Source: an uncultured Mollicutes bacterium
GTDB taxonomy: Bacteria > Bacillota_I > Bacilli_A > RF39 > UBA660
Direction: 5' to 3'
Length of the DNA stretch: 64,000 nt
NCBI GenBank assembly: GCA_947652375.1
Contig: CANTCS010000003.1
Coordinates: 4,914 to 68,913, forward strand
In this document: positions 580 through 64,000 of the stretch, piece after piece
Position numbering within the stretch: position 1 is the stretch's first letter
Layout of the letters: every line of letters starts with the position of its first letter
Notes under the pieces: generated by a model
Database searches by the model: none
Told to the model about the DNA's origin: nothing
Seen by the model: the letters and a program-made list of their open reading frames with translations, nothing else
Made by a program: the position numbers and the translations under genes

Positions 580-667
580 TCAAGTCTATAAAATTAAAAT
601 TTCCACCTTCGTAAAAAAATTAAATTTGAATTATGATTTGATTGTAATTTGAAAGGAGGAGGTGAAA

Positions 668-2377
668 ATGGCAGGTCGTGGTAACAAAAAGCAAAGTAGA
701 ACAAATGATGAAAATAGAAAATGGTCATTTGGTGTATATGGAAGAAGATCGTTTGATGATGGCGAAAATAGTGAGTCTTACACAATAAAAAATCAAAAAG
801 CATTGATAGAATCATATTTAGAAAATAAGCCTAACATTGTTATTGAAGATTATTATGTTGATGATGGCTATACTGGTACTAATTTTGATAGACCGGGATT
901 TAAAAGATTACTGCAAGATGTAGTAAATGGAAAAATAAATGGAATTATAGTAAAAGATTTATCAAGATTAGGAAGAAACCATAGAGAAGTTGGTAAATAT
1001 ATTGAAGAAATATTCCCCATCTATGATATACGAATTATTTCTGTAAATGATAATGTAGATTCTTATTTAGATCCAGAGTCAATAAGCAGTTTAATAGTAC
1101 CAGTAAAAAATCTTATGAACGAAAACTATTCAAGAGATTTATCTAAAAAGGTTGCTAGTGCTTATGAAACAATGGCAAAAAATGGTCAGTTTGTTGCCGG
1201 AACAACTCCTTATGGATATATGTTAGACCCAGAAGATAAACACCATTTAATAATAGATCCTAATGAAGTTGATATAGTTAAAAAAATATTTGAAATGGCT
1301 TTATCTGGAAATGGTCGTCCTACGATTTGCCAGTATCTTAATGATAATGGAATTTTATGCAGAAAGGAACTTCAAAGAAGAAAGAAAAGAAAATTAACAT
1401 TAGACCCATTTGAGATAAGGTCACAATATTTATGGAGTACATCTACGATTGGAAGAATGCTTCATAATGAATCATATATTGGAAATCTAGTTCAATTAAA
1501 AACAACAAGAGCAACTTTTGGTAGTAAAAAATTTGTTACTAAAGATGAAGAAGAATATATCCGTTCTGAAAATACACACGAAGCAATTATATCAAAAGAA
1601 GATTTTTATAAAATACAAAAGATAATAAAGCAAAATGATAAAAAGAAAGTACACAATTCTCCAATGTCATATTCAATATTTAATGGAAAATTGAAATGTG
1701 CAGACTGTGGTAGAGCAATGACAAAACAAGAAGATACGAGAGGGAAAAGGCAACTTTCTAATTATTTCTGTATGAGTTATTTACAAGTAAGCAAATCTTG
1801 CTCATCACACAAGATAAAAACAAGTGAGTTAGAAAGTTCGGTTTTAGAGGCAATTCAAGTGCAAGTAAAATTAGTAATAGAGTTAGAAAGAAGTTTATCT
1901 AAATTGTATTTTAAGAATAATCAAGGCTCTATGGAAAATGAATATAAAAATAATGTAAAAATTGCAGAATTAAAAATATCTAATTTAAAAGAACAAAAAA
2001 GAAAATATTACGAGGAATGGAAATTTAACAAACTAGAAAAAAGTGAGTTTATGAAATTATCTGAAGAAATAGAGTCCAAAATTAGTAAGTTAAATGAAGA
2101 TATAGAAATATACACATCAACATATAGAGAAAATGTTAAAAAAATTAGAAAAAATGATTATTGGATAGGTCATTATAAAAGAAATAGAAAGATTAAAAGT
2201 CTTTCAAAAGAAGTTTTAGATGAACTTATTGATGTCATTTATGTTAATAAAGATAAAACTTTGGATATTAAATTCAAATACCAAGACGAATACGAAAGTT
2301 TAGTAAATTATTTAAAGGAAGGAGTAATAAAAAATGAAAAAGTGGACATTGGGAGTTTATCGCAGGCGTTCATTTGA
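668..2377 (+). CDS. large serine recombinase (integrase), copy 1
   Basis: Resolvase domain present (VYGRRSFDD catalytic-Ser context, DDGYTGTNFDRPGF, IIVKDLSRLGRN). It also has a recombinase domain, a zinc ribbon (KCADCG...YFC) and a long K/E-rich coiled-coil tail. The AGGAGG RBS favours ATG 668 over the GTG 662 in the track. Confidence 0.9.
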   Translation: MAGRGNKKQSRTNDENRKWSFGVYGRRSFDDGENSESYTIKNQKALIESYLENKPNIVIEDYYVDDGYTGTNFDRPGFKRLLQDVVNGKINGIIVKDLSRLGRNHREVGKYIEEIFPIYDIRIISVNDNVDSYLDPESISSLIVPVKNLMNENYSRDLSKKVASAYETMAKNGQFVAGTTPYGYMLDPEDKHHLIIDPNEVDIVKKIFEMALSGNGRPTICQYLNDNGILCRKELQRRKKRKLTLDPFEIRSQYLWSTSTIGRMLHNESYIGNLVQLKTTRATFGSKKFVTKDEEEYIRSENTHEAIISKEDFYKIQKIIKQNDKKKVHNSPMSYSIFNGKLKCADCGRAMTKQEDTRGKRQLSNYFCMSYLQVSKSCSSHKIKTSELESSVLEAIQVQVKLVIELERSLSKLYFKNNQGSMENEYKNNVKIAELKISNLKEQKRKYYEEWKFNKLEKSEFMKLSEEIESKISKLNEDIEIYTSTYRENVKKIRKNDYWIGHYKRNRKIKSLSKEVLDELIDVIYVNKDKTLDIKFKYQDEYESLVNYLKEGVIKNEKVDIGSLSQAFI

Positions 2378-3920
2378 TGAAAAAGGCGAAGAAGAATCAA
2401 ATAGTGTCGTTAATCAAAAGAAACTTATAGATGATTATTTAGTTGACAAGAATGATATAATCATATATAAAGACTATGTTGATGATGGTTATACTGGAAC
2501 TGATTTTAATAGACCTGCATATAAGAGAATGCTTAATGATATAAAGAAGAAAAAAATAAATGGTATTATAGTAAAGGATTTATCAAGATTAGGAAGAAAT
2601 TATATAGAAGTAGGTAATTTTATTGATGAGATAGTACCAGAATATGGTTTAAGATTTATTTCAGTAAATGATAATGTGGATTCTTTTAAAAATCCTAATG
2701 TGATGGATTCACTAGAAATACCTTTTAAAAATCTTATGAATGAAAGTTATTCTAAAGATTCATCAAAGAAAATGCGTTCATCACTGAAAGCAAGTAAAAA
2801 GTCTGGTAATTTTATTGGTAAAACTGCTCCTTTTGGTTATTTGAAAGATCCAGAAGATGTGCATAAACTAATCATTGATAAAGACGCTGCTAATATTATT
2901 AAAAGAATATTTGATTTAGCCTTAAAAGGTAAGAGTAAACAGGAAATAGTAGAAGAATTAACAAATAATAATATTTTAACACCTAGTGTTTATTTGAAAG
3001 AAAAACATAATATAAAGGTCAGCAGGATTAGTCATAAATGGAATACCAAAATGCTTGATACTATATTACAGAATAAAACATATATTGGTTCTCTTGTTCA
3101 ATGTAAAAGAACTAGAATAAGTCATAAAACACACAATATGGTAAGAGTTGCAGAAGATGAATGGGTTATTTCAAACGAACGACACAATGCAATTATTAAA
3201 GAAGAAGTTTTTAATCAAGTACAAGACATTTTATATAATAGAAATGTTAGAGTTAATAAGAAAGGAAAATTTTATAAATATACTGGATTTTTAAAATGTT
3301 CTGAATGTGGTGGAAATTTATATAGACTTACTAAAATCAAACACAAAAAGGAAAAAGTTTTTTACTATTGCAGTACCTATATTAACACAAAACAATGTAA
3401 TAAACACTATATTCAAGAAAAAGAACTTGATGAGATTGTTTTAAAGACATTAAACCAACACATAGAACTGATATGTGATATAAGTGCAAAAATAGAAGAT
3501 ACAATATCATTTTCAAAAGCAGAATATAATTCTGAATTAAGAAAAATCAGAATAAATGAAATTAACAAAGAATTAGAGAAAAACCACAAATTGCTAGATG
3601 AATTAAAGAAAGATTATAAGTGTGATTTCATTTCAGAAAATGACTATGATGAATTTAAACAAAAATACTTGTATGAGATAAATAAACTAAATTTAGAAAA
3701 AGAAGATTTAAACAAGAGTAAAATAAATTCATACAATTTAGATTGGATAAATCAATTTAAGAAAATTGGAAAAATAGAAGTTGTTGATAGAAATATTGTA
3801 GATAGTTGCATTGAAAATATAATTGTTAATGATGAAAAAGGAGTAGAGATAATTTTTAGATATAATGACCAATATAAATTTGCAGAAAGGTATCTGAAAA
3901 GTCAAAATGATGTGGTATAA
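2334..3920 (+). CDS. large serine recombinase (integrase), copy 2; overlaps copy 1 by 44 nt
   Basis: VYRRRSFDE, DDGYTGTDFNRPAY, IIVKDLSRLGRN, zinc ribbon KCSECGG...YYC, coiled-coil tail. AAGGAAGGAG RBS precedes ATG 2334. It shares near-identical nucleotide tracts with copy 1 (for example about 941-980 versus about 2559-2600). Confidence 0.9.
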   Translation: MKKWTLGVYRRRSFDEKGEEESNSVVNQKKLIDDYLVDKNDIIIYKDYVDDGYTGTDFNRPAYKRMLNDIKKKKINGIIVKDLSRLGRNYIEVGNFIDEIVPEYGLRFISVNDNVDSFKNPNVMDSLEIPFKNLMNESYSKDSSKKMRSSLKASKKSGNFIGKTAPFGYLKDPEDVHKLIIDKDAANIIKRIFDLALKGKSKQEIVEELTNNNILTPSVYLKEKHNIKVSRISHKWNTKMLDTILQNKTYIGSLVQCKRTRISHKTHNMVRVAEDEWVISNERHNAIIKEEVFNQVQDILYNRNVRVNKKGKFYKYTGFLKCSECGGNLYRLTKIKHKKEKVFYYCSTYINTKQCNKHYIQEKELDEIVLKTLNQHIELICDISAKIEDTISFSKAEYNSELRKIRINEINKELEKNHKLLDELKKDYKCDFISENDYDEFKQKYLYEINKLNLEKEDLNKSKINSYNLDWINQFKKIGKIEVVDRNIVDSCIENIIVNDEKGVEIIFRYNDQYKFAERYLKSQNDVV

Positions 3921-6288: not shown

Positions 6289-8310
6289 ATGGCAAAGAAA
6301 TTGGTTATAGTGGAAAGTCCTAGTAAAAGTAAAACTATAGGGAAATATTTAGGTGATGAATATAAAGTTGTGTCTTCGGTTGGTCATATACGAGATTTGG
6401 CAACTACTGGTCAATATGGATTTGGTGTGGATATTGAAAATGGATTTAAGCCGAACTATATTCCAATTAAAGGAAAAAGTGGAGTAATAAAAGAATTAAA
6501 AAAAGATGTCAAAGATAGCGAAATAGTATATCTAGCAAGCGATCCCGATCGAGAAGGAGAGGCAATTGCTTGGCATTTAAAAGATGCTTTAGGAATAAAA
6601 GATAATAATTATAAAAGAGTTCTATTTAATGAAATTACTCATGATAAAGTAATTGATGCTATTAATCATCCTACAGTTATTGATGATAATTTGGTTAAAA
6701 GTCAAGAAACAAGAAGAATTTTAGATAGGATTATTGGATTTAGATTATCTAAATTATTACAAAGCAAAATAGGGGCTAAGAGTGCAGGAAGGGTACAAAG
6801 TGTAGCTTTAAAGTTAATAGTTGATCGAGAAAGAGAAATAGAGGCTTTTAAACCTGAAGAATATTGGACAATAACTGCAATTTTTCCTGAGTATGAAGCT
6901 AATTTATTTAAATATAAAAAAGATGATATCGAACTCCATTCTGAGGATGAAGCTAACAAAGTATTGGATGCTTTAAGTGAAAAATATTCTGTTGAATCAA
7001 TTGAAAAGAAAGAAAAAGCAAAACATAGTAAATTTCCATTTATTACTTCTACTTTGCAACAAGAGGCTTCTACTAAACTAGGTTTTCCAGCTAGGAAAAC
7101 AATGAGTATAGCTCAAAAATTATATGAGGGTATTGATTTAGAGAATGAGACTGTTGGTCTTATTACATATATGAGAACAGATTCTATTCGTTTGTCAGAT
7201 GATTTTATAAAACCAGCAATGAAATATATTGAAGAAAATTATGGAAAAAAATATGTAGGTTTTATAAAAAAAGGAAAGAAAAAAGAAAATGTTCAAGATG
7301 CACATGAAGCGATTAGACCAACTAGTGTTATAAGAGAACCTCTTAAAATAAAAGAGTACTTAAGTGATGATGAATTTAAACTTTACAGTTTAATTTATAA
7401 AAGAACACTAGCTTCTTTAATGAGTGATGCTATTGTTAATCAAACAACTATTATATTTGATAATAATGATTATAAATTTAAAACTACAGGAAGTATTTTA
7501 ATATTTGATGGATATTTAAAAATTTATAAAGATTATGAAAATTCTGAAGATAAAATATTACCAGAAATTGGTGATAGTGAAGTTTGCACAACAACAGATG
7601 TTGATTGTAGCCAACATTTTACTAAACCACCTGCAAGATATAGTGAAGCAAAACTTATTAAAGAAATGGAAGAGTTAGGTATTGGAAGACCTTCTACTTA
7701 TGCAACTATCATAGATACTATTAAAAGTAGAAATTATGTAATTTTAGAAGAAAAGAAGTTTAAACCAACAGAAATGGGAGTTGAAACAACTGATAAACTT
7801 CAAGAGTTTTTTAATGATTTGATAAATACTGAGTATACAAGAGATATGGAAAATGATCTAGATAATATTGCTGATGGAAAATTAATATGGAATGAGTTAT
7901 TGGACAAATTTTATAATCTATTTGAACCCCGTGTAAAAAATGCTTTCAGTGACATGGAGAAGAAAGCTCCTGAGGAGGCTGGTGAGGATTGCCCAGAGTG
8001 TGGAAATCCTTTAGTAATAAGAAAGGGAAGGTATGGAGATTTTGTAGCTTGTAGTAATTATCCTGAATGCAAATATATAAAGAAAGAAGAAAAAGAAGTA
8101 ATTGAAATTATGGATTGTCCTTTGTGTGAGGGGAAAATAATTGAAAAACCTACTCGCCGAGGCAAAGTTTTTTATGGTTGTAATAATTATCCTAAATGTA
8201 AGTTTGCAACTTGGGATAAACCAACAGGAGAAATGTGTCCAGAATGTGGAAAATATTTAGTACAAAAAAAAGATAAAATAAAATGTAGTGAATGTGAATA
8301 TGAGAAGTAG
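6289..8310 (+). CDS. topA: DNA topoisomerase I
   Basis: Toprim VIVESPSKSKTI and DPDREGEAIAWH, active-site region YMRTDS, three C-terminal Cys4 zinc ribbons. Confidence 0.95.
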   Translation: MAKKLVIVESPSKSKTIGKYLGDEYKVVSSVGHIRDLATTGQYGFGVDIENGFKPNYIPIKGKSGVIKELKKDVKDSEIVYLASDPDREGEAIAWHLKDALGIKDNNYKRVLFNEITHDKVIDAINHPTVIDDNLVKSQETRRILDRIIGFRLSKLLQSKIGAKSAGRVQSVALKLIVDREREIEAFKPEEYWTITAIFPEYEANLFKYKKDDIELHSEDEANKVLDALSEKYSVESIEKKEKAKHSKFPFITSTLQQEASTKLGFPARKTMSIAQKLYEGIDLENETVGLITYMRTDSIRLSDDFIKPAMKYIEENYGKKYVGFIKKGKKKENVQDAHEAIRPTSVIREPLKIKEYLSDDEFKLYSLIYKRTLASLMSDAIVNQTTIIFDNNDYKFKTTGSILIFDGYLKIYKDYENSEDKILPEIGDSEVCTTTDVDCSQHFTKPPARYSEAKLIKEMEELGIGRPSTYATIIDTIKSRNYVILEEKKFKPTEMGVETTDKLQEFFNDLINTEYTRDMENDLDNIADGKLIWNELLDKFYNLFEPRVKNAFSDMEKKAPEEAGEDCPECGNPLVIRKGRYGDFVACSNYPECKYIKKEEKEVIEIMDCPLCEGKIIEKPTRRGKVFYGCNNYPKCKFATWDKPTGEMCPECGKYLVQKKDKIKCSECEYEK

Positions 8311-34527: not shown

Positions 34528-35898
34528 ATGATAAAAGAATTTATAAAGAAAAATATTAAATACTTGTTTTTATTTATATTATTCTTTTTTTGTATACAAT
34601 TCTTTTATGCGGTTTTTTCTCAAGATCAAATTTATAATTATGGTTTTAGTTATGCTATTAGTAGAGGAGAAGTTCCTTATAGAGATTTTAATATGATTAT
34701 TCCACCAATGGGAGCTTTTATTTATGCGATACCTCTATTAATTGGAGGTTCTTATTTAGAGTTTAATTTATTTCAATCATTTCTTTTATGTGTGTTATTC
34801 TTTTATTTATTTAAATTATATGATGAAAAAGCTTGGTTTATATTGTTTGTTTTGATGATTATAGTTCCATTACCTTTAGTTTCTATTTTATTTCAAGGGT
34901 ATAATTTCTTATTGATTTTAGAATTTGTGATTTTATTATATTTAGAGAAAAATAAAAAAAGTGATTATTTGATCGGAATTTTATTAGGTGTAGCTATTTT
35001 GACTAAACAAACTGTAGGAATTCTATTATGTTTATCAACTTTTGTTTATTTAATAAAAGATTATAAGAAATTTATTAAAAGAATTATAGGGTTATTTATA
35101 CCATGTTTAATCTTTTTTATATATTTAATTTTAACTAAATCTTTTACTGCTTTTTTTGATTTATGTTTTTTAGGAATGTTTGATTTTACTAAAAAGAATG
35201 GGGGATTTAGAAAATATTTAAGTGATTTTTCTTTTTACTTATTTATGATTGAAATAATAGGACTTTGTTTCTTAATGATAAAATATCGTAAAGATGAAAA
35301 TACTTTAAGAGAATTGGTTTATATATTTTTATTTTCATCGATTGCTGTTCCATTATTCGATTATCTTCATGTAGTTTATTTTACTTTTGTTTTTTTATTA
35401 TTTTTTGTTGGAAAAATTAAAATTAGTGAAAAATATAAATGGGGAATAAATGTTTATATTTTATCAAGTGTTGTTGGGGTAGTGTGGTTTTTATTCTTTT
35501 ATAATTTTAAAATGCCTAATATAGAAAATTATAATAATTTTAAATGGTTTATTTGTACAGAAAAAAATAGTAAAGAATTTGCAATGATAATTTCTTATAT
35601 GAAAAAGAGACCTAATACAATTTTATTATCAGAAAATACATATCTTATTAAAATAATTTTGGATAGAGAAATAAATTACTTTGATTTACTTAATTATGGT
35701 AATCATGGTTATAATGGGTCTAATAAATTAATTAGTATGCTTAATAAAGAGAAAGACAAATATCTTTTAGTTAATATGGAAGCTTATAAAAGAAAAAATT
35801 TAAGACAACAGTTTAATAAAGAAGTTATTGAATATGTGTTGAAGAATTATCAAAAAGTAGATAAACTAGGAGTTTATGATATTTATTATAAGGAGTGA
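34528..35898 (+). CDS. polytopic membrane protein, paralogue 1 of 3 (possible GT-C-like transferase; function unknown)
   Basis: 456 aa. Multiple TM segments followed by a polar C-terminal domain. Shared blocks: YGFSYAISRGEVPYRDFN, LLYLEK....DYLIG..LGVAILTKQTVG, FFDLCFLGMFDF, VPLFDYLH, INYFDLLNYGNHGYNG. Confidence 0.75.
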   Translation: MIKEFIKKNIKYLFLFILFFFCIQFFYAVFSQDQIYNYGFSYAISRGEVPYRDFNMIIPPMGAFIYAIPLLIGGSYLEFNLFQSFLLCVLFFYLFKLYDEKAWFILFVLMIIVPLPLVSILFQGYNFLLILEFVILLYLEKNKKSDYLIGILLGVAILTKQTVGILLCLSTFVYLIKDYKKFIKRIIGLFIPCLIFFIYLILTKSFTAFFDLCFLGMFDFTKKNGGFRKYLSDFSFYLFMIEIIGLCFLMIKYRKDENTLRELVYIFLFSSIAVPLFDYLHVVYFTFVFLLFFVGKIKISEKYKWGINVYILSSVVGVVWFLFFYNFKMPNIENYNNFKWFICTEKNSKEFAMIISYMKKRPNTILLSENTYLIKIILDREINYFDLLNYGNHGYNGSNKLISMLNKEKDKYLLVNMEAYKRKNLRQQFNKEVIEYVLKNYQKVDKLGVYDIYYKE

Positions 35899-37253
35899 TT
35901 TATTTGAAAAAAGTTGTTAGAAATTTATTAATATTTTTGGGGATATTTTTGGTTTCTTTTTTATTCATTCATGTTTTAGGGTTTGTTAATGGTTATGGAG
36001 ATCCTATTAATAGTTATGGTTTTGCAAAAGCTATAAAAATGGGAGAAATTCCTTATCTAGATTTTAATACTATTTCGACTCCTTTGTATGCTTTTTATCA
36101 AGCTCTATTTTTATTTATATTTGATGACTTTATTATGATAAATGTTTCTCAAGCTATTCTTATAACTTTTAGTGTAATAATACTTTATAAATTATTTGGT
36201 AAAAAAAGTTTCCTTTTATTAATTGTAGTAGCTTTTTTCCATTATAAAAATATTGTTGCTACTTATAATTATTTGAGTTTATTTATGATAATTCTTTTAA
36301 TATATTTAGAAAAAGAATATGCCGATAAAGATTATTTAATAGGATTTGTAATTGGTCTTTCTATTTTAGCGAAACAAACAGTAGGATGTTTCATGATAAT
36401 TCCTTCATTGTTATTTTATTTTAAAAATAGAGAAAAAATTTTAAAAAGATTTAGAGGATTTTTAATTCCTTGTTTTGTGTTTTTCTTTTATTTAATTTTT
36501 AATAAAACTGTATTTCAATTTTTTGACTTATGTCTATTTGGTTTGTTTGATTTTTTGACTAAAAATGGTGTTGGTGGAGGTCATATAAATTTAGGGTGGC
36601 TTATTTTTACAATAATAACTTTTCTTTTAGCTTTATTTTTACTTATAAAAAATAAAAAAGATATTAATAATTATTATTTAATATCAGGAGTATTATTTGC
36701 TATTCCATTATTTGATATAACGCATTTTTCTTTTTGGTTTACTTGTTTTTTAATAATGCTTTTACCATATATAAAAAAATATAGTAAAGTATTAATTACT
36801 GTTGGAATAGCTATGTCAATAACTTTAATGTTTTTAGATTTTTCTTTTTCTACTTTAAAATTAGATCTATGTATTACTAAAGATTTAAAGCATTTTAAGT
36901 ATAATTTGTATCGGAAAGATTTTTATGATGCAAATATTATTGTTGATAAATTTGTTAATACTTATGATGACCCTGTTGTTATAGGTTACTTTTCTATGAG
37001 ACATTCGATTGTAAATGACAAAAAAATTTCATATTTTGATGTTTTATATGATGGTAATTATGGATTTAATGGAATTGATAAGATGAAAAAGAAAATTGAT
37101 AAAATGCATAATCAAATATTTATTGTTTCTAAAATAGATTATAATTCTAAAGATGAGTTTTCGCAATTTTCTAAGAGTTTAGCCAAATATGTAATGGATA
37201 ATAATACTAAAATAGATTCGAAATATGGTTTTGATGTTTATTACAAAAAATAA
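35895..37253 (+). CDS. polytopic membrane protein, paralogue 2 of 3
   Basis: 452 aa. GTG start overlaps the stop of paralogue 1. Blocks: YGFAKAIKMGEIPYLDFN, LIYLEKEYADKDYLIG...LSILAKQTVG, FFDLCLFGLFDF, IPLFDITH, ISYFDVLYDGNYGFNG. Confidence 0.75.
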   Translation: MIYLKKVVRNLLIFLGIFLVSFLFIHVLGFVNGYGDPINSYGFAKAIKMGEIPYLDFNTISTPLYAFYQALFLFIFDDFIMINVSQAILITFSVIILYKLFGKKSFLLLIVVAFFHYKNIVATYNYLSLFMIILLIYLEKEYADKDYLIGFVIGLSILAKQTVGCFMIIPSLLFYFKNREKILKRFRGFLIPCFVFFFYLIFNKTVFQFFDLCLFGLFDFLTKNGVGGGHINLGWLIFTIITFLLALFLLIKNKKDINNYYLISGVLFAIPLFDITHFSFWFTCFLIMLLPYIKKYSKVLITVGIAMSITLMFLDFSFSTLKLDLCITKDLKHFKYNLYRKDFYDANIIVDKFVNTYDDPVVIGYFSMRHSIVNDKKISYFDVLYDGNYGFNGIDKMKKKIDKMHNQIFIVSKIDYNSKDEFSQFSKSLAKYVMDNNTKIDSKYGFDVYYKK

Positions 37254-37308
37254 TAGTTGTTAAAATAGAATTTTTCTATTACTAATTTTCTTTTTAAGAG
37301 GTGGTATC

Positions 37309-38682
37309 ATGCAATTTTTTAAAAGATTTTTTGAAATTATTTATAAATATAGAAATTTACTTTTCATTTTTATTTTTGCATTTTTTGCTATGAGTTTCTT
37401 TTTTAGTTCTATTGATGGAGATGTATTATGGAATTATGGTTTTAGTTATGCAATAAGTAAAGGAGAAATACCTTATTTAGATTTTAATATGATTATTACA
37501 CCATTTTATCCGATGTTCAATGCGATATTTCTTAAAATATTTTCAAATAATATATTAGTATTTTATATAATTAATAGTTTTTTAATTACGTTGATGTTTA
37601 ATCTGTTATTTAAAATGTTTAACTATAAAACATGGATATTATTTCTATTTTTATTTTTTCCTTTACCTGCGGTAGTATTTCCTACTTATAATATGTTATT
37701 AATATTTTTGGTTCTATTACTTATTTATTTAGAAAAAAATGATGGAAATGATTATCTTATTGGAATTATTTTGGGTATTTCTATTTTAACAAAACAAACT
37801 GTAGGCTGTTTTTTGTGTTTACCAAGTTTATTTTATTTTTATAAAAATTGTAAGAAAATTGGTAAAAGAATAACAGGTTGTTGTATTATTTGTAGTATGT
37901 TCTTTTTATATTTATTATTTTGTGGGAATTTAGAAGAGTTTTTCTCTTTATGTTTCTTAGGAATGCTTGATTTTCATAAAGCCAATACTAGAGTTTTTAA
38001 TATATTTTTCTTTTTAACTCTTTTAATGGATTTTATTATTATATATAAAATAGTAAAAGATAAGAGAAATATTAATAATTGGTATGTATTATGTTTTTCT
38101 ATAATCAATGTTCCTTTATTTGATGTTAATCATTTTGAATATTTTTTATTTTTATTTTTGGCATTATTTTTAGAAAAACTTACTATTTATAAAAAACAAT
38201 TATGTTATTGTAGTTTACTTTTTTCTTTATGTTATATATTTATATTTTTTTATAATACTGTTGGATTTAGTATAAGTTATCCTAATCATTATAATAATTT
38301 TGAAGTAAGGCTTTTATATAATAAAAATGGGGAATTTGCTATTAGGGATAGATTAAATAAATATATAAATAAGAATAAAAATAATAATATTGTATTGCTT
38401 AGTAGTGAGGCTTATTTTTATAAGATTACTAATGAAATGGATATTAATTATTTTGATTTATTAAATAAAGGTAATCATGGTTATAATGGAACTAAAAGAA
38501 TGATTAATAAAATTAGAGAGATGCCTAAAGGGACAAAATTTATTTTAGATTATGGTGAATTTAAAAAGAAAGATAGATATCAAAGACAACAAATTAATAA
38601 AGAAATTATGAAATATGTAATTGATAATGGTAAATTAATTGATGAGTTTGACTGTTTTAGAGTTTATAAATTAGCTAATTAA
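37309..38682 (+). CDS. polytopic membrane protein, paralogue 3 of 3
   Basis: 457 aa. Blocks: YGFSYAISKGEIPYLDFN, LIYLEKNDGNDYLIG...ISILTKQTVG, FFSLCFLGMLDF, VPLFDVNH, INYFDLLNKGNHGYNG. Confidence 0.75.
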   Translation: MQFFKRFFEIIYKYRNLLFIFIFAFFAMSFFFSSIDGDVLWNYGFSYAISKGEIPYLDFNMIITPFYPMFNAIFLKIFSNNILVFYIINSFLITLMFNLLFKMFNYKTWILFLFLFFPLPAVVFPTYNMLLIFLVLLLIYLEKNDGNDYLIGIILGISILTKQTVGCFLCLPSLFYFYKNCKKIGKRITGCCIICSMFFLYLLFCGNLEEFFSLCFLGMLDFHKANTRVFNIFFFLTLLMDFIIIYKIVKDKRNINNWYVLCFSIINVPLFDVNHFEYFLFLFLALFLEKLTIYKKQLCYCSLLFSLCYIFIFFYNTVGFSISYPNHYNNFEVRLLYNKNGEFAIRDRLNKYINKNKNNNIVLLSSEAYFYKITNEMDINYFDLLNKGNHGYNGTKRMINKIREMPKGTKFILDYGEFKKKDRYQRQQINKEIMKYVIDNGKLIDEFDCFRVYKLAN

Positions 38683-57758: not shown

Positions 57759-60700
57759 ATGGAAGAATTTGATTTTTTTGATACGGATTATGATGAGAAG
57801 ATTTTAGCAAAGCAAATAATAAGAATAGATCAGAAGTTTAAAGATCTAGAAGATGCTAGAAATATTATTTTTGAAAAATTAGAAGAGAGTGGTAATTTTT
57901 TTGAAAATAGTGAAAATTTAAGTATAAAGTGTAAAATTGTTGAAGAACAAGAAGATGGTTATCTATTAGATGTTACTGTACTAGAAGAAACTGTAGTTAA
58001 AGTTCCTTACAAAATAGAGAAAGAAGAAGTTTTTAGTGGTTCATTTACTTTAGAAAATGGAATGACTGAAGAAGAACAAAAAAGAAAAGTATTTGAATTA
58101 ATGATGGCAGATGGTATACAAATTGTTGGTACTAAATATGATATTCAATATGATGAGATACTTGATGAAGATAGGGAAACAAAAATAAATTTTGTGGTAA
58201 GTAAGGGAGTAAATATTAATAGTAGTAAACCAGAAATTATTTATAAAGAAATTTCTAAAGGTAAGATTGTGCCAGTTTATAGCTTTAATGAAGATATCTA
58301 TCTGGGAAAAATAAAAATTGAGGAATTACAAGAAGTAAGTTCAGAAAATGAACGATCAAATTTAATGTTAGAAAAAGCAAGGCTTGATGGAATTGAGATA
58401 GATAATTTAACTAATTTAGTTATTGGTATTTCTGGATATAATGATGATTTTATTACATATGTTATTTCAAAAACAAATGAAATAGAGGCAATAGTAGAGC
58501 AAGCGAGATTACAAAAGGATGAAATAATTGAGACATCTGTAGTAGGAACTGGTAGTATTGATTTTGGGGAATCAATAGAAGCAGCTGTACAAAGAAATAG
58601 TGGGATAGATATCCGAAGTAGTGCTAATTATATCATTATTTTTGATGAAACTCATACACAAAAATATACTTTACATAAAGTAAGTATAAAAAAGAATAAT
58701 ATGACAATCCCTAGTTCTTTACTTTTAAATACTTTAAATAGTGAATTGTCTTCGAATCAATTGAAAGAGATAGATTTTGATATTGAAAAATTACATCAGG
58801 AAATTGTAGAATTAGAACACACACTTTCATCTAGTTTTAACAAATTAATAGAACGAGAGGATAAAATTAGTCAAATACTTGATAAAGATTTATTATTGAG
58901 TGATGATGAGATCGTAAGTTTATATGAAAAATATTATAATGAGCAACGAGAAGATTATTTAAATAAAATTTTATTAGAAAGAAGAATTAAAGAAAAAAAC
59001 AAGAAATTAAAGAGACTTTTAAAATTAAAGAAGAAAAAAGAAAAGGAATTATTAACAGCAAAAGAGATGGGATTATCTTTAGATGAATATTTAGATATAG
59101 TAAATATTGTAGAAGATAATGGTTTCTTTAAGAAGATGTTAGATCAACTTGAAATTGGCAATATTCTTGAAAAAGATTCAGAAGAAAGATCTAGAAAAGA
59201 TAAAAAAATTCTAAGAAAAGTAAAAAAAGAAATTATTGAAGAAATAGCTTTAAGATATAAGAAAGATAATTTACCAATTTTAGAAATAGTTGAGGAATTA
59301 TTTGATTTAGATGTTTCAAATGGAAATGCACTAGAAAATGTTAGTGTTTTATATGATCCAAGTTCAGAAGTTACTATAGTCGAAGAACCTAAAACTTATA
59401 ATACTCAACTTGCTGAAATAGAAAGAATAGAAAAAAATGTAGCAAGTTTACCAGAAAAAGTTGTTAATGTTGGAGCTACAGGCGAGTATGAACCTTTAAA
59501 AGCTCCAGATGATATGGTAGAGGTTTATGATAATAATGTTATTTTATATGAAGATTCAATAAACTCGAATTTCTATGTTAATGAGAGAATTCTTAAGTTA
59601 TTTAATATAGAAAAAAGTGATGATGAAATTTCTATTAATGATGAAATTCTATATCGAATAGAGTATGATGATGCTCAATTTATTATGAATAATGCTAGTA
59701 GTAACTCTTATTCTTATACTAGAGTTGAAATAGTAGAAGAAGATAAAACAGAAGAGGATGCAGAAGATATTTTTGAAGATGATCAAGATAATCTAGAAAA
59801 GATTACTATTTATGTTGATCGAGTTACTGGTGAGTTTTATGCTAAAAAGTATGTATTTATAAGATTTAATGCGGTAGCTTCAAACCAAGTTATTATTAAT
59901 GATAAGACATGCTATAAACTTGATTTAGAAGATTTTAGATTTATTGCCGATAATTTTAATAATGAATATTCACCTTATGTTTTAGATTATCAATATGTAG
60001 ATATCAAAAGGGAAGAAGATTCCTTACATAATGATGATAAAAATGAAGAAGTTATAATGACTTTCTACAGAGATTTAAATGATAATAATCAGATTTATGT
60101 TTCAACAGAAATTTTAAATCTATTTGAATTAACTCCTAATAATGAGGAAATTGAAATAGATGATGAACGTTGTTATAAATTAAGTAATGATGCAGTTCAA
60201 TTAATTACTAATATAGCTAAGAAAAGTGAAAATCCAAAATATATAATTAAATTTGAGAATATAAGTATAAATAAGAAAGTTAGACCTCATGTTGAAACTG
60301 TTCTTAATAAACTAACAGAAAATTTAGATATTGGTGCTAAAGATTATAAAAGATTTACTGCTAGTAATATAAAGGTTTCTAAAGAGTTTGTTAAGGAATT
60401 AAAATCTGGTAATTATTTATATAATATTGTTCATATAATTCCTTCTCTTGCGAAAGCAACTTTTAAATTTCTTCGTAAATTATGTGCTAAATTATTTCTT
60501 TCTAAACGTGGAAAGAAAGTAATGTTAGAATTAGAGCGAAGATTAAATGAAGAGTTAACTGAGGAAGAGATTGAAGTTTTATTTGACGAATATAAGGGAA
60601 CTCAATTAAAGACAGATATGAATAATCAGATTAATGGAATGATTTTAAAAAAATTAAGACAGCATGGTTTAGAAAAAGTTGAAAAATTAAATGATGCAAT

Positions 60701-62063
60701 AAAAGATGATTATTCTAATTTATTTACTTTATTAGGATCAATAAAAACTATTGATAGAGAAAAACAATATGATGATTTAACCGAAAAAGAATTTAATGCT
60801 TTAGAATTAGAAAAAAAAAGTTTAATTGATCAAGCTGCAGAAAGAATTAAAAATATATTAATTTGTAGAAAAGATGCTAATAATTTGTTATCTGGAGGAG
60901 TTCACGGTTTAGAAGAGGATTTCAAAGCTGTTGCAACAAAACTTTCTTATGTTGGAATGCGATTTGCAAAAAATAATAAATTTGATAATGAATTACAACA
61001 TGAGTTAAGTGAGTATGGTAGTGGAATTACTAGAGCTTTAGAGAATGGTGATAATGAAGCACTTTTGGAAAATTTTATGGGTTTGGAGAGTTGTTATTTT
61101 GATAATACTAAAATAAAGACTGGACTTACTGGTAAAAGAAGTGTTGGTAGTAAATATTATTCTCCTTTAGCTGAACAGTTTGATTATCGTGATGATCCGT
61201 TCATTAGAGATATTTTTACAACAGTAGCGTTATCTTCTTCTATGGTTAGTATGGTTAATTCTTATAGAGTTCATCAAATAGAGGCTAATGAAGTTTTAGC
61301 AAAACAACAAAGTGAAGTAGAGAAGGTTAATAATTCTTATGATTATATTGATCAAGCTTCATCAGAAATTAGTAATAATAAAGATATAATTCAAGAGGGG
61401 TTAAAAGCTCAGTCTCATCAAGATGTTTTGACATCTGCGACAACAATAGAAAGATCTGCTTTAGATATGAATAATTGGAGTTTTAATAATGCGTATCATC
61501 AAGCAGATGATTTAGGACATAATTTTTATAATCAATTTCATCAAAATGTTACTAACAGCATAAATGATATAACATCTAAATATGGAAACGGAACAATCGA
61601 TCAGTTTGAAGCTCTTCAAAGTATTACTGATATTGCGAATAATGCTCAAAGTTCTTTAATTAAAGTTTGTAATGAATGTAGTGGAATAATGAAAACTTAT
61701 GCAGAGAATCATCCTAATTTTGATTTAAGAGGTATTCAAGAGTCTTTAGATTATATTTTAGAGCATCCTGATGCTTTAAGTAAAATGAATCAAGCAATGA
61801 CAGATACGATAAAAATAAGTAATGGTTTACAAGGATTAAGTAAGAATCATATAGAGGCTTTATCAAGTTTACCAAGTGATATTTTATCAACAGTTGTGTG
61901 TGCTGCTTCTGCAGCAGGCTTGGCCCTTAATGTTTCTCATTCATTAAATAAAAAATATTTAAAAAAGAATGATTATAGAAATGATGTTGTTGAAATGATG
62001 GAACAATATTTAAATGGTTTTGATTATCAAGATAATGAAAATGAATTAGCAAAAAAGAGATAA
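57759..62063 (+). CDS. orphan 1,434-aa acidic repeat-containing protein with a C-terminal hydrophobic anchor
   Basis: GGAG RBS and no signal peptide. Four PepSY-like alpha/beta modules (aa about 20-310), a K/E coiled coil (aa about 330-500), three repeats of about 75 aa (aa 587-838), a helical C-terminal region and a single TM ILSTVVCAASAAGLALNV (nt 61881-61934). Confidence 0.8.
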   Translation: MEEFDFFDTDYDEKILAKQIIRIDQKFKDLEDARNIIFEKLEESGNFFENSENLSIKCKIVEEQEDGYLLDVTVLEETVVKVPYKIEKEEVFSGSFTLENGMTEEEQKRKVFELMMADGIQIVGTKYDIQYDEILDEDRETKINFVVSKGVNINSSKPEIIYKEISKGKIVPVYSFNEDIYLGKIKIEELQEVSSENERSNLMLEKARLDGIEIDNLTNLVIGISGYNDDFITYVISKTNEIEAIVEQARLQKDEIIETSVVGTGSIDFGESIEAAVQRNSGIDIRSSANYIIIFDETHTQKYTLHKVSIKKNNMTIPSSLLLNTLNSELSSNQLKEIDFDIEKLHQEIVELEHTLSSSFNKLIEREDKISQILDKDLLLSDDEIVSLYEKYYNEQREDYLNKILLERRIKEKNKKLKRLLKLKKKKEKELLTAKEMGLSLDEYLDIVNIVEDNGFFKKMLDQLEIGNILEKDSEERSRKDKKILRKVKKEIIEEIALRYKKDNLPILEIVEELFDLDVSNGNALENVSVLYDPSSEVTIVEEPKTYNTQLAEIERIEKNVASLPEKVVNVGATGEYEPLKAPDDMVEVYDNNVILYEDSINSNFYVNERILKLFNIEKSDDEISINDEILYRIEYDDAQFIMNNASSNSYSYTRVEIVEEDKTEEDAEDIFEDDQDNLEKITIYVDRVTGEFYAKKYVFIRFNAVASNQVIINDKTCYKLDLEDFRFIADNFNNEYSPYVLDYQYVDIKREEDSLHNDDKNEEVIMTFYRDLNDNNQIYVSTEILNLFELTPNNEEIEIDDERCYKLSNDAVQLITNIAKKSENPKYIIKFENISINKKVRPHVETVLNKLTENLDIGAKDYKRFTASNIKVSKEFVKELKSGNYLYNIVHIIPSLAKATFKFLRKLCAKLFLSKRGKKVMLELERRLNEELTEEEIEVLFDEYKGTQLKTDMNNQINGMILKKLRQHGLEKVEKLNDAIKDDYSNLFTLLGSIKTIDREKQYDDLTEKEFNALELEKKSLIDQAAERIKNILICRKDANNLLSGGVHGLEEDFKAVATKLSYVGMRFAKNNKFDNELQHELSEYGSGITRALENGDNEALLENFMGLESCYFDNTKIKTGLTGKRSVGSKYYSPLAEQFDYRDDPFIRDIFTTVALSSSMVSMVNSYRVHQIEANEVLAKQQSEVEKVNNSYDYIDQASSEISNNKDIIQEGLKAQSHQDVLTSATTIERSALDMNNWSFNNAYHQADDLGHNFYNQFHQNVTNSINDITSKYGNGTIDQFEALQSITDIANNAQSSLIKVCNECSGIMKTYAENHPNFDLRGIQESLDYILEHPDALSKMNQAMTDTIKISNGLQGLSKNHIEALSSLPSDILSTVVCAASAAGLALNVSHSLNKKYLKKNDYRNDVVEMMEQYLNGFDYQDNENELAKKR

Positions 62064-62066
62064 ATG

Positions 62067-62096
62067 AAAGCTATTAGTTTACTAATGGCTTTTATT
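62067..62096 (+). terminator. terminator after the 1,434-aa ORF
   Basis: AAAGCTATTAGT-tt-ACTAATGGCTTT (12 bp, one G-U pair) followed by T-rich sequence. Confidence 0.6.
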
Positions 62097-62143
62097 TATA
62101 AATTAGGATTTGAATCTATATTTTTTAAAGGTTGGTGGATGTT

Positions 62144-64000
62144 TTGAAAAATAAAAAGAATGGTGGATTTACATTAATAGAATTACTTGCGGTAATAGTT
62201 ATTTTGGGAATTCTTATAGTAGTTACAGTTCCTTCTTTATCTAGATTAATAAAGAAGACTAAAGATGAAAATAGAGAAAGTAGTAGAAATACTTTAGAAA
62301 TGGCTGCTAAAAGTTATGCGGAAAATAATAAAAAAGTTTTGCCAAAAAGTATTGGTGAAATTAAAACGATTAAGATAGCTGATTTAAAGAATGCAAATTT
62401 TTTAAAAGAAGATATTAAAAGTGCTGATAAAGAATCATGTATGAAAAATTCTTATGTTAAAATTTTTAAATATGATAAAGATAAATATAATTTTGTAACT
62501 TATTTGTATTGTGGTGATGAAGTTCCTGATGAGGATGATGAGAAATATAATTCAAAAATTGCGATAAGTTTTACTGATGGTAATGATCAGGAACTTGATA
62601 TAGCTAAAAATAAAGTAACTTCTGCAAAAGTTAAGATTAAGTTTGAAAGTGGTTTAGATCAAGCGAAAGAAAAAGTTGGTTTACATGGTTATAATTATAT
62701 TATTCGTGTAAAATATACTGATGATAAAGATTATTTAGAAATATATAATTCGGGTTCCATTAATGCTTATGGAAAAGAGGTAATTGAAGTAAATAAAAAT
62801 ATTTCTAAGTATATTGATATTAAAGGCGCAACAGATATAGAAGTAATTGCTGAAGTTTATGATAGAGCTGGTAATTATAAAAAATTACAAAAAAGAGCTA
62901 AATATAAAGACAAAGAAGCTCCAAAATGTGGTGAAGTTATTGGTGAAGCTATAGATGAGAATGATTGGGATGGTAGTATTAAAAGAAGAACTATTTCTGT
63001 TAAGTGTTTTGATGAGGGTGGAAGTGGTTGTATTAAAGATACTTTTACAAAAACTTTTACAAAAGAGACTGAATGGGATTATATTACAATAAAAGATAAT
63101 GCAGGAAATAGTGCTAAATGTAAAGTTAGGGTTAATTTAGATTGGACGCCTCCTAGTTTAATTATAAAAGCCTTTAAAAAAGGAACAAATGAAGAAGTTG
63201 GTGAGGCTCATGCAGATGCAGATAAAAAAAATGAGGAGCTAAAAAAATATAAAAATGGTTATGGTAATGATAATTGGTTAAATAAAGCTAACTATCCTAA
63301 TGGAATATATTATAAGGTTATTGTCGATGAAGATAATACTATTGGGAAATTAACAACTAATAAAACAGGATTATTAAAAAGTTCTACTGATGTTAAAGTT
63401 TTAGATTTTAATAATTATCCAAATAATTTTGACAATATTAGAGAATTTACTTTTACAGAAGATGGTTATAGAAATGCTAAATATAGCTTAATGGATAAGG
63501 CTAAGAATGAAGTTACAATTAGTATAACAGCTGCAATTGATAGGGTAGCTCCAACTACTCCAATTGTTAGATTTTGGAAAAAGAAATCAATAGTGAATAT
63601 TACTAGTTCAGCTGGGTTAACAGAATCATACTCTCCTGGAACTTTGAATAATGAATCTTGGTCTAATAAATTTTTATTTGTTGAGGCTACAGGCTCTACG
63701 GATGCAATTTCTCAACTTAATGGTTATCGATATAAAATAGGCAGTAATCCAGAAGGAAATGGTTCATTTTATAATTTCAATAGTAATGTTAAAAATCAAA
63801 GTATTCAATTTAAGGCGTGTGATAATGCAGGAAATTGTTCAGGCTTTGTTCCTGGTAATGGTAATAATTTGATTTCTATTGATACTACTCCTCCGAAGTG
63901 TACCATAAATACTACACCAGATGGTTATATAAGTGGTAAATGGACTAATCAAGATGTTAAAGTGACAGCAACGTGTAAGGATACTGTAAGTGGCTGTACA
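62144..64000 (+). CDS. giant modular type IV prepilin-like protein (at least 619 aa, 3' end outside the window)
   Basis: Not in the ORF track. Hand translation from TTG 62144 (or in-frame GTG 62135) to 64000 meets no stop. N-terminus is MKNKKNGG|FTLIELLAVIVILGILIVVTVP, a class III signal with Glu at +5. It is followed by Ig-like modules bounded by D..(A/P)P and carrying D.AGN and C.D..SGC motifs. Confidence 0.8.
   Translation, partial: MKNKKNGGFTLIELLAVIVILGILIVVTVPSLSRLIKKTKDENRESSRNTLEMAAKSYAENNKKVLPKSIGEIKTIKIADLKNANFLKEDIKSADKESCMKNSYVKIFKYDKDKYNFVTYLYCGDEVPDEDDEKYNSKIAISFTDGNDQELDIAKNKVTSAKVKIKFESGLDQAKEKVGLHGYNYIIRVKYTDDKDYLEIYNSGSINAYGKEVIEVNKNISKYIDIKGATDIEVIAEVYDRAGNYKKLQKRAKYKDKEAPKCGEVIGEAIDENDWDGSIKRRTISVKCFDEGGSGCIKDTFTKTFTKETEWDYITIKDNAGNSAKCKVRVNLDWTPPSLIIKAFKKGTNEEVGEAHADADKKNEELKKYKNGYGNDNWLNKANYPNGIYYKVIVDEDNTIGKLTTNKTGLLKSSTDVKVLDFNNYPNNFDNIREFTFTEDGYRNAKYSLMDKAKNEVTISITAAIDRVAPTTPIVRFWKKKSIVNITSSAGLTESYSPGTLNNESWSNKFLFVEATGSTDAISQLNGYRYKIGSNPEGNGSFYNFNSNVKNQSIQFKACDNAGNCSGFVPGNGNNLISIDTTPPKCTINTTPDGYISGKWTNQDVKVTATCKDTVSGCT

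Follow-up and report, generated by a model that had tools for sequence, protein, structure and literature searches.

The last open reading frame (ORF) of a 64-kb stretch of DNA from an uncultured Mollicutes bacterium (the window; contig C3, C3:4914-68913) raises the question of what kind of surface protein is made when a prepilin-type signal is followed by a long series of beta-sandwich modules. An initial annotation of the window had described the product as a giant modular type IV prepilin-like protein with Cys-containing immunoglobulin (Ig)-like repeats. We examined the complete frame, its relatives and its genome, an assembly of 1.59 Mb in 54 contigs with 25% G+C and a completeness of 93.6%. 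The gene probably encodes a modular type IV pilin-like surface protein whose signal peptide is of class III and which presents an Ig-like rod on a filament or from an anchor in the membrane. This degree of confidence applies to the explanation as a whole, its inferred steps included.

Reading frame and prepilin-type N-terminus

In an ORF listing that allows open ends, a plus-strand frame runs from 62132 to the end of the window through 623 codons with no stop. The gene is missing from the default ORF list because the frame continues past the window end (flag '3open'). Extension along the contig bore out the open edge that had been noted at the outset and gave an intact full frame, whose stop lies at C3:69552 (window-equivalent 64639), 639 bases past the window end. 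Counted from TTG 62132, the numbering used below, the product has 835 amino acids (aa) and the frame holds no frameshift; the word 'giant' did not survive, the protein being large for a pilin only. Three in-frame starts are available, TTG 62132, GTG 62135 and TTG 62144. The public protein record uses the third (831 aa, MKNKKNGGF...), and the sequence makes it the likelier one, because it lies 4-5 nt past the GGTGGA motif and the leader length and N-terminus agree with those of the homologues (MKNKKGFTL and MFNNKKGFTL, whose leader length equals that obtained from TTG 62144). An alternative genetic code is not needed, since tryptophan is encoded by TGG and the frame and its neighbours look normal under table 11.

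The N-terminus carries a class III signal consisting of the basic leader MKNKKNGG with Gly-1, followed by FTLIELLAVIVILGILIVVTV with Phe+1 and Glu+5. The Pfam model N_methyl (PF07963) matched with 30.7 bits (cut-off 21.2) and was the sole Pfam match of the whole protein; NCBIfam TIGR02532 reached 24.7 bits (cut-off 16.3). In an alignment of 40 homologues Glu+5 (E17) was invariant and Gly-1 (G12) was at least 90% conserved, and the G-1/F+1/E+5 pattern was also kept in hundreds of family representatives. Two AlphaFold2 (AF2) models predicted an alpha1 helix of 51 residues (15-65), and a family profile aligned over its positions 2-67 with alpha1 of solved pilins (E 1e-12 to 1e-5); for the solved pilins and pseudopilins Geopilin, PilE1, PilA, MshA and GspG taken together, E ranged from 1e-12 to 1e-2. 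Sub-threshold NCBIfam matches confined to alpha1 were obtained for ComGC, GspG, ComGE and PilA, with GspG and ComGC as the best; the competence pilins ComGC and ComGE scored 33.1 bits (cut-off 75) and 30.1 bits (cut-off 49), respectively. With both motif models above their cut-offs and Glu+5 invariant, the prepilin-type signal proposed by the initial annotation is, as judged from the sequence, real.

Behind alpha1 the AF2 model places a small globular head with three strands (77-81, 108-113 and 119-124) and a helix (82-87). The predicted local distance difference test (pLDDT) score of the head is mostly 76-94 and lies at 58-69 around residues 131-140; a separate model of residues 1-262 had a pLDDT of 82.9. 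The pilin identity draws on the signal and alpha1, on the helix and small sheet that AF2 predicts, and on a conserved Cys pair, with no match of fold.

The module array and its family

The AF2 model built with the homologue alignment (mean pLDDT 83.6) shows seven all-beta modules after the head, which we call M1 to M7 (Table 1). The protein thus agrees with the definition of a modular pilin given by Raynaud et al. 2021, having a pilin module and then seven beta-sandwich modules past residue 135. A Foldseek search of the PDB with the full model returned arrays of Ig, MG or FN3-like domains (E 3e-9 to 1e-6), among them a mastigoneme, alpha2-macroglobulins, the Aureispira grappling-hook protein GhpA, RTX-adhesin extenders and the HPI S-layer. 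The family profile of the repeat region likewise matched the Ig-like HPI S-layer protein and SiiE-type BIg domains. The label 'Ig-like' rests on the predicted fold together with weak profile matches.

Five of the seven modules (M2, M4, M5, M6 and M7) belong to one repeat family by profile-profile comparison (hhalign probability 94-99%). The relationship is closest among M2, M5 and M6 (98.9-99.2%, E 1e-17 to 1e-19), and M4 pairs with M5 at 98.5%. The repeats were not seen when the protein was compared with itself by BLAST, and profile-profile comparison was needed to find them. The unit is about 75 aa long and reads D-x-x-(A/P)-P-x-C ... C-x-D-x-x-S-G-C ... D-x-A-G-N-x-x-x-C. The protein has six openers of the form D-x-x-(A/P)-P (at residues 260, 337, 470 and 584 and, past the window, at 660 and 732) and six D-x-[AG]-G-N motifs (at 244, 322 and 564 and, past the window, at 644, 717 and 826). 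M2 is the most conserved module, with all four of its Cys invariant among the 40 homologues. M1 is unrelated in sequence to the remaining modules (hhalign probability <1%) and retrieved Ig-like or MG-like sandwiches in Foldseek (E 2e-4 and weaker). M3, with a pLDDT of 81-96 and mostly at or above 90 in the AF2 model, resembles the repeat in its last strand motif only (hhalign M2-M3 88% over 33 columns). All the motifs that the initial annotation had listed for its Cys-containing Ig-like repeats are present, and AF2 and hhalign agree with its modular description; the Cys spacings of 31 and 22 residues that it gave are in fact PKC-24-KC and PKC-23-TC. The C-terminus, ...YSVKDKAGNETKSS, has no LPXTG motif, hydrophobic segment or other anchor that could be found, and a sortase-anchored LPXTG fibrillar adhesin was rejected as an explanation because the LPXTG motif and the C-terminal hydrophobic segment are missing.

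The protein belongs to a large family. A word-indexed search gave 63 relatives (570-1,388 aa), almost all of which carry N_methyl. With an exhaustive search, 352 cluster representatives were obtained at E<=1e-30, a number that rose to 1,301 at E<=1e-10, and the longest had 2,515 aa. Matches occur in all 36 other genomes of the genus, usually several in each and up to 21 per genome; tandem pairs are frequent and open frames of the family reach 2,126 aa. The expectation that this would be an extreme case was not borne out, since at 835 aa the protein is shorter than an 860-aa modular pilin already described (PMC8179133) and is small within its own family. A24 peptidases are present in 33 of the 36 genomes, the three without one being 60-74% complete. 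The relatives come from metagenome-assembled genomes (MAGs) that carry the labels Bacilli, Tenericutes or Mollicutes and were obtained from the guts of humans, mice, sheep, rabbits, chickens and reindeer, and the present strain occurs in mouse-gut metagenomes. Close homologues carry the generic NCBI name 'type II secretion system protein', and a literature text search found no paper on the family. In the search for related loci a single-protein query gave nothing, and an alignment query worked.

The first ~250 residues, comprising the pilin module and M1, also occur as stand-alone proteins of ~260 aa. One of these is encoded in the same genome (C10:23495-24274, plus strand); it has 259 aa and matches residues 5-250 with 30% identity. 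Its signal is degenerate (…KKKITLMELF…, without Gly-1 or Phe+1), and this paralogue may escape cleavage by PilD.

Conservation declines along the protein. Mean identity is 45% for alpha1, 46% for the head and 48% for M2, and 22-31% for M3-M7. In other mouse-gut assemblies the gene differs by in-frame indels only (15 and 9 nucleotides), with the exception of one run (X3), in which a different sequence, alike to less than 85%, takes the place of the stretch at about 6900-7194 (residues ~618-716, M5/M6). Positions here are those of the sequence L006, in which the gene extends to 7553. Contigs of run X3 match both flanks of the stretch, the replacement is of similar length, and the change looks like a strain-level replacement of modules. 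The pattern as a whole would fit a constant mount formed by alpha1, head and M2, with M3-M7 as a diversifying, exposed part.

Assembly machinery and alternative readings

The initial annotation had found no assembly genes upstream in the window and had suggested that the machinery might lie elsewhere, and both points were upheld. On contig C28 a 477-aa PilC/GspF-like platform ORF, with two T2SSF matches, adjoins a 255-aa A24 peptidase (52.5 bits) that has an N-terminal CxxC...CxxC segment. Contig C4 encodes a 590-aa PilB/GspE-like ATPase (T2SSE, 393.6 bits); two pilin-like ORFs, 237 and 210 aa long, flank the ATPase gene, which is divergent from them. The family N-terminus profile detected six further pilin-like ORFs of 132, 143, 174, 189, 259 and 1,160 aa, of which the small pilins of 132-189 aa on C9 and C14 suit the role of major pilin. 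The initial annotation had also named three circumstances that would speak against its proposal, namely a genome without prepilin peptidase or assembly machinery, a start 3' of FTLIE, and a frameshifted or truncated frame; none of them was found.

Other surface genes were noticed in the genome. The largest of the six ORFs (C13:16107-19589; L009 8108-11590) encodes a second large pilin-like protein of 1,160 aa (N_methyl 32.9 bits), whose likeness is confined to the first ~40 residues, the body consisting of different, Asp/Glu-rich repeats. Beside the PilB-like ATPase on C4 (L008 7881-10056) are ORFs of 153 and 533 aa that have a C-terminal module in common and close with LPFTGS and a hydrophobic tail, as sortase-type pilins do; the shorter ORF looks like a copied 3' fragment of the 533-aa gene. 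The only other T2SSE-type ATPase of the genome, a CpaF-like protein of 514 aa, lies in a Tad/Flp-like locus (C8:29684-40183; L012 3684-14183) with two TadB/C-like membrane proteins, two TadE-like small proteins, a CpaB-like protein and a sortase-like ORF. The roles in this locus were assigned by eye from the translations, the ATPase alone having a T2SSE match. The same locus encodes a 951-aa secreted protein with 30 Cys, the genome maximum.

In the reading that we favour, a PilD-like enzyme would cut the leader after Gly-1 and would probably methylate Phe+1. Through its hydrophobic alpha1 the protein would then be docked into a short type IV filament, assembled by the minimal machinery of this genome, or retained in the membrane. 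In the filament case it would most probably be a low-copy or tip subunit, in keeping with the model put forward for Streptococcus sanguinis PilB (PMC8179133). The rod would hold its distal modules, which vary more, clear of the cell, and its architecture suggests that the protein probably functions as an adhesin or spacer; a ligand-binding domain was not recognised in it. Because an Ig-like domain measures about 4 nm, the rod may be roughly 25-30 nm long.

Several results weigh against this reading. The evidence fits incorporation into a filament and simple membrane anchoring alike. PilM (with a sub-threshold match to FtsA only), PilN and a PilT-like second ATPase were not found in the genome, and for this reason a long retractile pilus is unlikely; in composition this minimal machine resembles Com or pseudopilus systems more than it does retractile type IVa pili. 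Contig C3 gave no T2SSE, T2SSF or A24 peptidase match, so that no assembly gene lies near the gene, and no conserved neighbours were seen around its paralogues in ten relatives. None of the RNA runs searched contains the gene. Foldseek with the model of residues 1-262 returned no pilin among its top 50, only matches to the M1 beta-sandwich, and a profile of the head against the PDB gave no pilin and spurious leucine-rich-repeat matches on the motif LPKxIG. When single modules were compared with Pfam, Big_13 (PF19077) scored 18.3 bits (threshold 27) and HYR (PF02494) 14.2 bits (threshold 21.7); the match to Bact_surface_Ig-like in the protein was also sub-threshold, and some homologues, as whole proteins, do pass the HYR or Big_13 thresholds. 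Lastly, no match to DsbA/BdbD-like PF13462, DsbB PF02600 or VKOR PF07884 was found in the 93.6%-complete genome.

The last point bears on a side question, that of an anaerobe with no recognisable disulfide-forming enzymes that exports modules with four conserved Cys each. The protein contains 22 Cys, or 2.63%, which places it at the 95th percentile of a genome with a median of 0.98% and gives it the tied third-highest absolute count. Several exported proteins of this genome are Cys-rich despite the missing oxidase matches. Spontaneous disulfides, metal sites or an unknown oxidase are possible ways of handling the Cys.

The alternative that survives best, which we regard as possible though improbable, is that the surface protein is anchored in the membrane, its class III signal serving for export and anchoring only, and enters no filament. 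The protein would be cut by PilD, alpha1 would stay in the membrane and the Ig-like rod would span the wall. The minimal machinery and the distance of the gene from the assembly genes speak for this arrangement, and up to 21 large paralogue matches per relative genome seem excessive for the tip subunits of one pilus. Archaea offer a precedent in non-pilin class III substrates such as the sugar-binding proteins of the Sulfolobus bindosome (PMC3047682), in which a prepilin-type signal mounts large non-pilin surface proteins and a small dedicated system of ATPase and membrane protein serves them; these are archaeal substrate-binding proteins and no Ig-like rods, and the analogy extends to the membrane-anchored arrangement only. 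Against it stand the invariance of Glu+5 and the conservation of alpha1, which is like that in true pilins. In pilins both serve the packing of subunit against subunit. Furthermore, an ATPase, a platform protein and candidate major pilins are all present in the genome, and the bacterial modular pilins studied to date are filament subunits (PMC8179133).

It is very improbable that the protein is no pilin-type protein at all, the signal being a chance prepilin-like signal-anchor or the gene an unexpressed relic. The head fold that neither Foldseek nor the head-only profile confirmed, and the lack of the gene in the RNA runs, could be taken in this sense. However, both curated models of the N-terminal motif exceed their cut-offs, the signal pattern is kept across the 40 homologues and the hundreds of family representatives, and the ORF and its syntenic orthologue are intact, with strain indels that stay in frame. 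We give almost no credence to a repeating major subunit of a thick fibre, with alpha1 in the core and the Ig-like rods as a bottle-brush surface. In its favour, alpha1 resembles the helices of major pilins and pseudopilins, the best NCBIfam matches being GspG and ComGC, below cut-off. Against it, a helical pilus would suffer steric clashes from the seven bulky modules of each subunit, the small pilins on C9 and C14 suit the major role, and the gene is single-copy, shows no strong promoter signal and varies in sequence between strains.

Genomic setting and related systems

The features of the gene and its upstream flank are collected in Table 1. The upstream hairpin overlaps the stop codon of the preceding 1,434-aa gene; it was not listed by the consensus terminator scan because its G-C pairs are too few. 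The promoter-like site carries little weight, because such sites are no rarer in shuffles of this AT-rich DNA. On the 3' side a terminator-like hairpin with a T-run, read by eye, follows the stop (L006 ~7557-7585), and beyond it lies a convergent ATP-binding cassette (ABC) transporter gene. These hairpins separate the gene from both neighbours and so suggest that it may form its own transcription unit. A poly-G promoter switch was considered and rejected, as a G run is absent from the 80 bases 5' of the gene.

Table 1. Sequence features of the pilin-like gene and its 5' flank (positions in the window; residues counted from TTG 62132)
Feature	Position	Strand	Remarks
Terminator-like hairpin	62060..62099	+	18-bp stem, -19.1 kcal/mol, z = -8.4 vs shuffles
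Promoter-like TTTATA-16-TATATT	62095..62122	+	Consensus scan (L006 5009-5036); just 5' of start codon
Shine-Dalgarno-like GGTGGA	62134..62139	+	4-5 nt 5' of TTG 62144; read from sequence
Leader MKNKKNGG of class III signal	62144..62167	+	Predicted PilD cleavage after Gly-1
Mature N-terminus FTLIELLAVIVILGILIVVTV	62168..62326	+	Glu+5 at 62180-62182; contains predicted alpha1
Globular head, residues 66-135	62327..62536	+	AF2; C103 nearly invariant, C127 invariant
M1, residues 136-259	62537..62908	+	Beta-sandwich, no Cys (AF2)
M2, residues 260-336	62909..63139	+	4-Cys repeat: C266, C292, C300, C330
M3, residues 337-469	63140..63538	+	Larger beta module, no Cys
M4, residues 470-583	63539..63880	+	Repeat with insertion; C-terminal CDNAGNC
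M5, residues 584-659	from 63881, window part to 64000	+	Module end at window-equivalent 64108
M6, residues 660-731	past window end on C3	+	Repeat family member
M7, residues 732-835	past window end on C3	+	Repeat family member; stop 64637-64639

The surroundings of the gene on C3 consist of housekeeping genes, with an mraZ-ftsZ division cluster upstream. In one related species a syntenic block was found that comprises a 403-aa ORF, a deaminase, a 167-aa ORF, a DUF1292 gene, a 1,411-aa orphan, the intact pilin-like orthologue and then the convergent ABC transporter. Identity is 51% for the pilin-like protein and 49% for the large orphan upstream; the genes just downstream mostly have 77-88%, with an ArsC-like protein at 70%. 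The orphan corresponds to the 1,434-aa ORF directly 5' of the pilin-like gene (window 57759-62063, plus strand), which has no Pfam match and was not found near paralogues of the pilin-like gene in ten other relatives. Small membrane proteins just downstream of the paralogues of relatives were considered as conserved neighbours and rejected, being not mutually homologous and having no counterpart 3' of the present gene. Further downstream, three genes (L006 10425-14220, C3:72425-76220, compared with L115 13104-16899) are 94-99.7% identical between the two species, namely a LysR-type regulator, a 540-aa ORF and a NADAR/DHH protein, where the preceding ten genes have 49-88%. The jump in identity suggests that an exchange took place recently, or that the stretch around the genes for surface proteins is hypervariable.

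Two further groups of ORFs in the window were noted. Between the ftsQ-like gene and ftsA of the division cluster, three tandem paralogous membrane-protein ORFs of ~455 aa (34528-38682, plus strand) have the motif ...YGFSYAIS.. in common. At the beginning of the window, adjacent overlapping ORFs of 571 and 528 aa (662-3920, plus strand), read from the ORF list only, have N-termini that are alike (…W.FGVY.RRSFD…); they resemble large serine recombinases and so may point to a mobile element.

In their survey, Raynaud et al. 2021 (PMC8179133) recorded over 1,200 modular pilins in 264 architectures, some with repeated domains and with sizes up to 860 aa, and predicted that many more are hidden for want of module signatures. 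The present protein is such a hidden modular pilin, its modules having no Pfam signature above threshold, and signature-based surveys miss the family because no database model covers the modules. The nearest counterparts are PilB (pilin plus vWA) and PilC (pilin plus lectin) of S. sanguinis, likewise a monoderm (PMC8179133). Both have a class III signal and a small pilin module with non-pilin modules placed C-terminally, and the expected role is the same, a binding module shown on a type IV filament. Unlike them, the present protein has seven beta-sandwich modules with no database signature in place of one functional domain, its gene lies outside a pil locus in a genome in which PilM, PilN and PilT were not found, and its family is multi-copy and fast-diverging and has no known ligand. 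A modular pilin from Candidatus Falkowbacteria, 860 residues long and with 12 repeat motifs, is likewise a repeat array of similar size (835 vs 860 aa), and architectures that combine IPR012902 with FN3 also join a pilin module to an array of repeated domains (PMC8179133). The protein differs from the Falkowbacteria pilin in its 4-Cys modules of ~75 aa, its sub-threshold HYR/Big_13 matches and its origin in a lineage of gut Bacilli MAGs.

More distant likenesses were seen in two directions. CofB of enterotoxigenic Escherichia coli (ETEC) and TcpB of Vibrio cholerae also have a pilin module followed by beta-repeat or beta-sandwich domains, and these large minor pilins sit at the tip of type IVb pili (summarised in PMC8179133). 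They differ in belonging to diderm type IVb systems, in forming trimers at the tip and in having their genes inside the pilus operon, and no sequence similarity of the pilin-like protein to CofB or TcpB was detected. The BIg domains of SiiE, the RTX adhesin extenders and the Deinococcus HPI S-layer, which were among the best Foldseek and PDB-profile matches, likewise form a tandem beta-sandwich rod (here predicted), but they are exported by type I secretion systems or Sec, are anchored in other ways and have no N-terminal pilin module.

Modular pilins are thought to explain many functions of simple type IV filaments, and few have been studied. The gene described here is a well-delimited, intact example of middling size, with a syntenic orthologue, strain-level module variation and a testable size of 835 aa. 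More interesting than the single gene are the whole family and the chemistry of its cysteines: the family is abundant in never-cultured gut Bacilli and probably shapes their attachment in the gut. A wider view, which we regard as possible though improbable, is that the pilin module may be a general mount for a large, fast-diversifying repertoire of Ig-like rods, that one pared-down PilB/PilC/PilD machine may serve them all, and that the Cys-rich modules may fold or bind metal without DsbA, DsbB or VKOR. If true, this would be a distinct Gram-positive route of surface building beside sortase anchoring, in a wall-bearing, small-genome lineage of uncultured gut Bacilli, and the present gene would be one small, single-locus representative of it.

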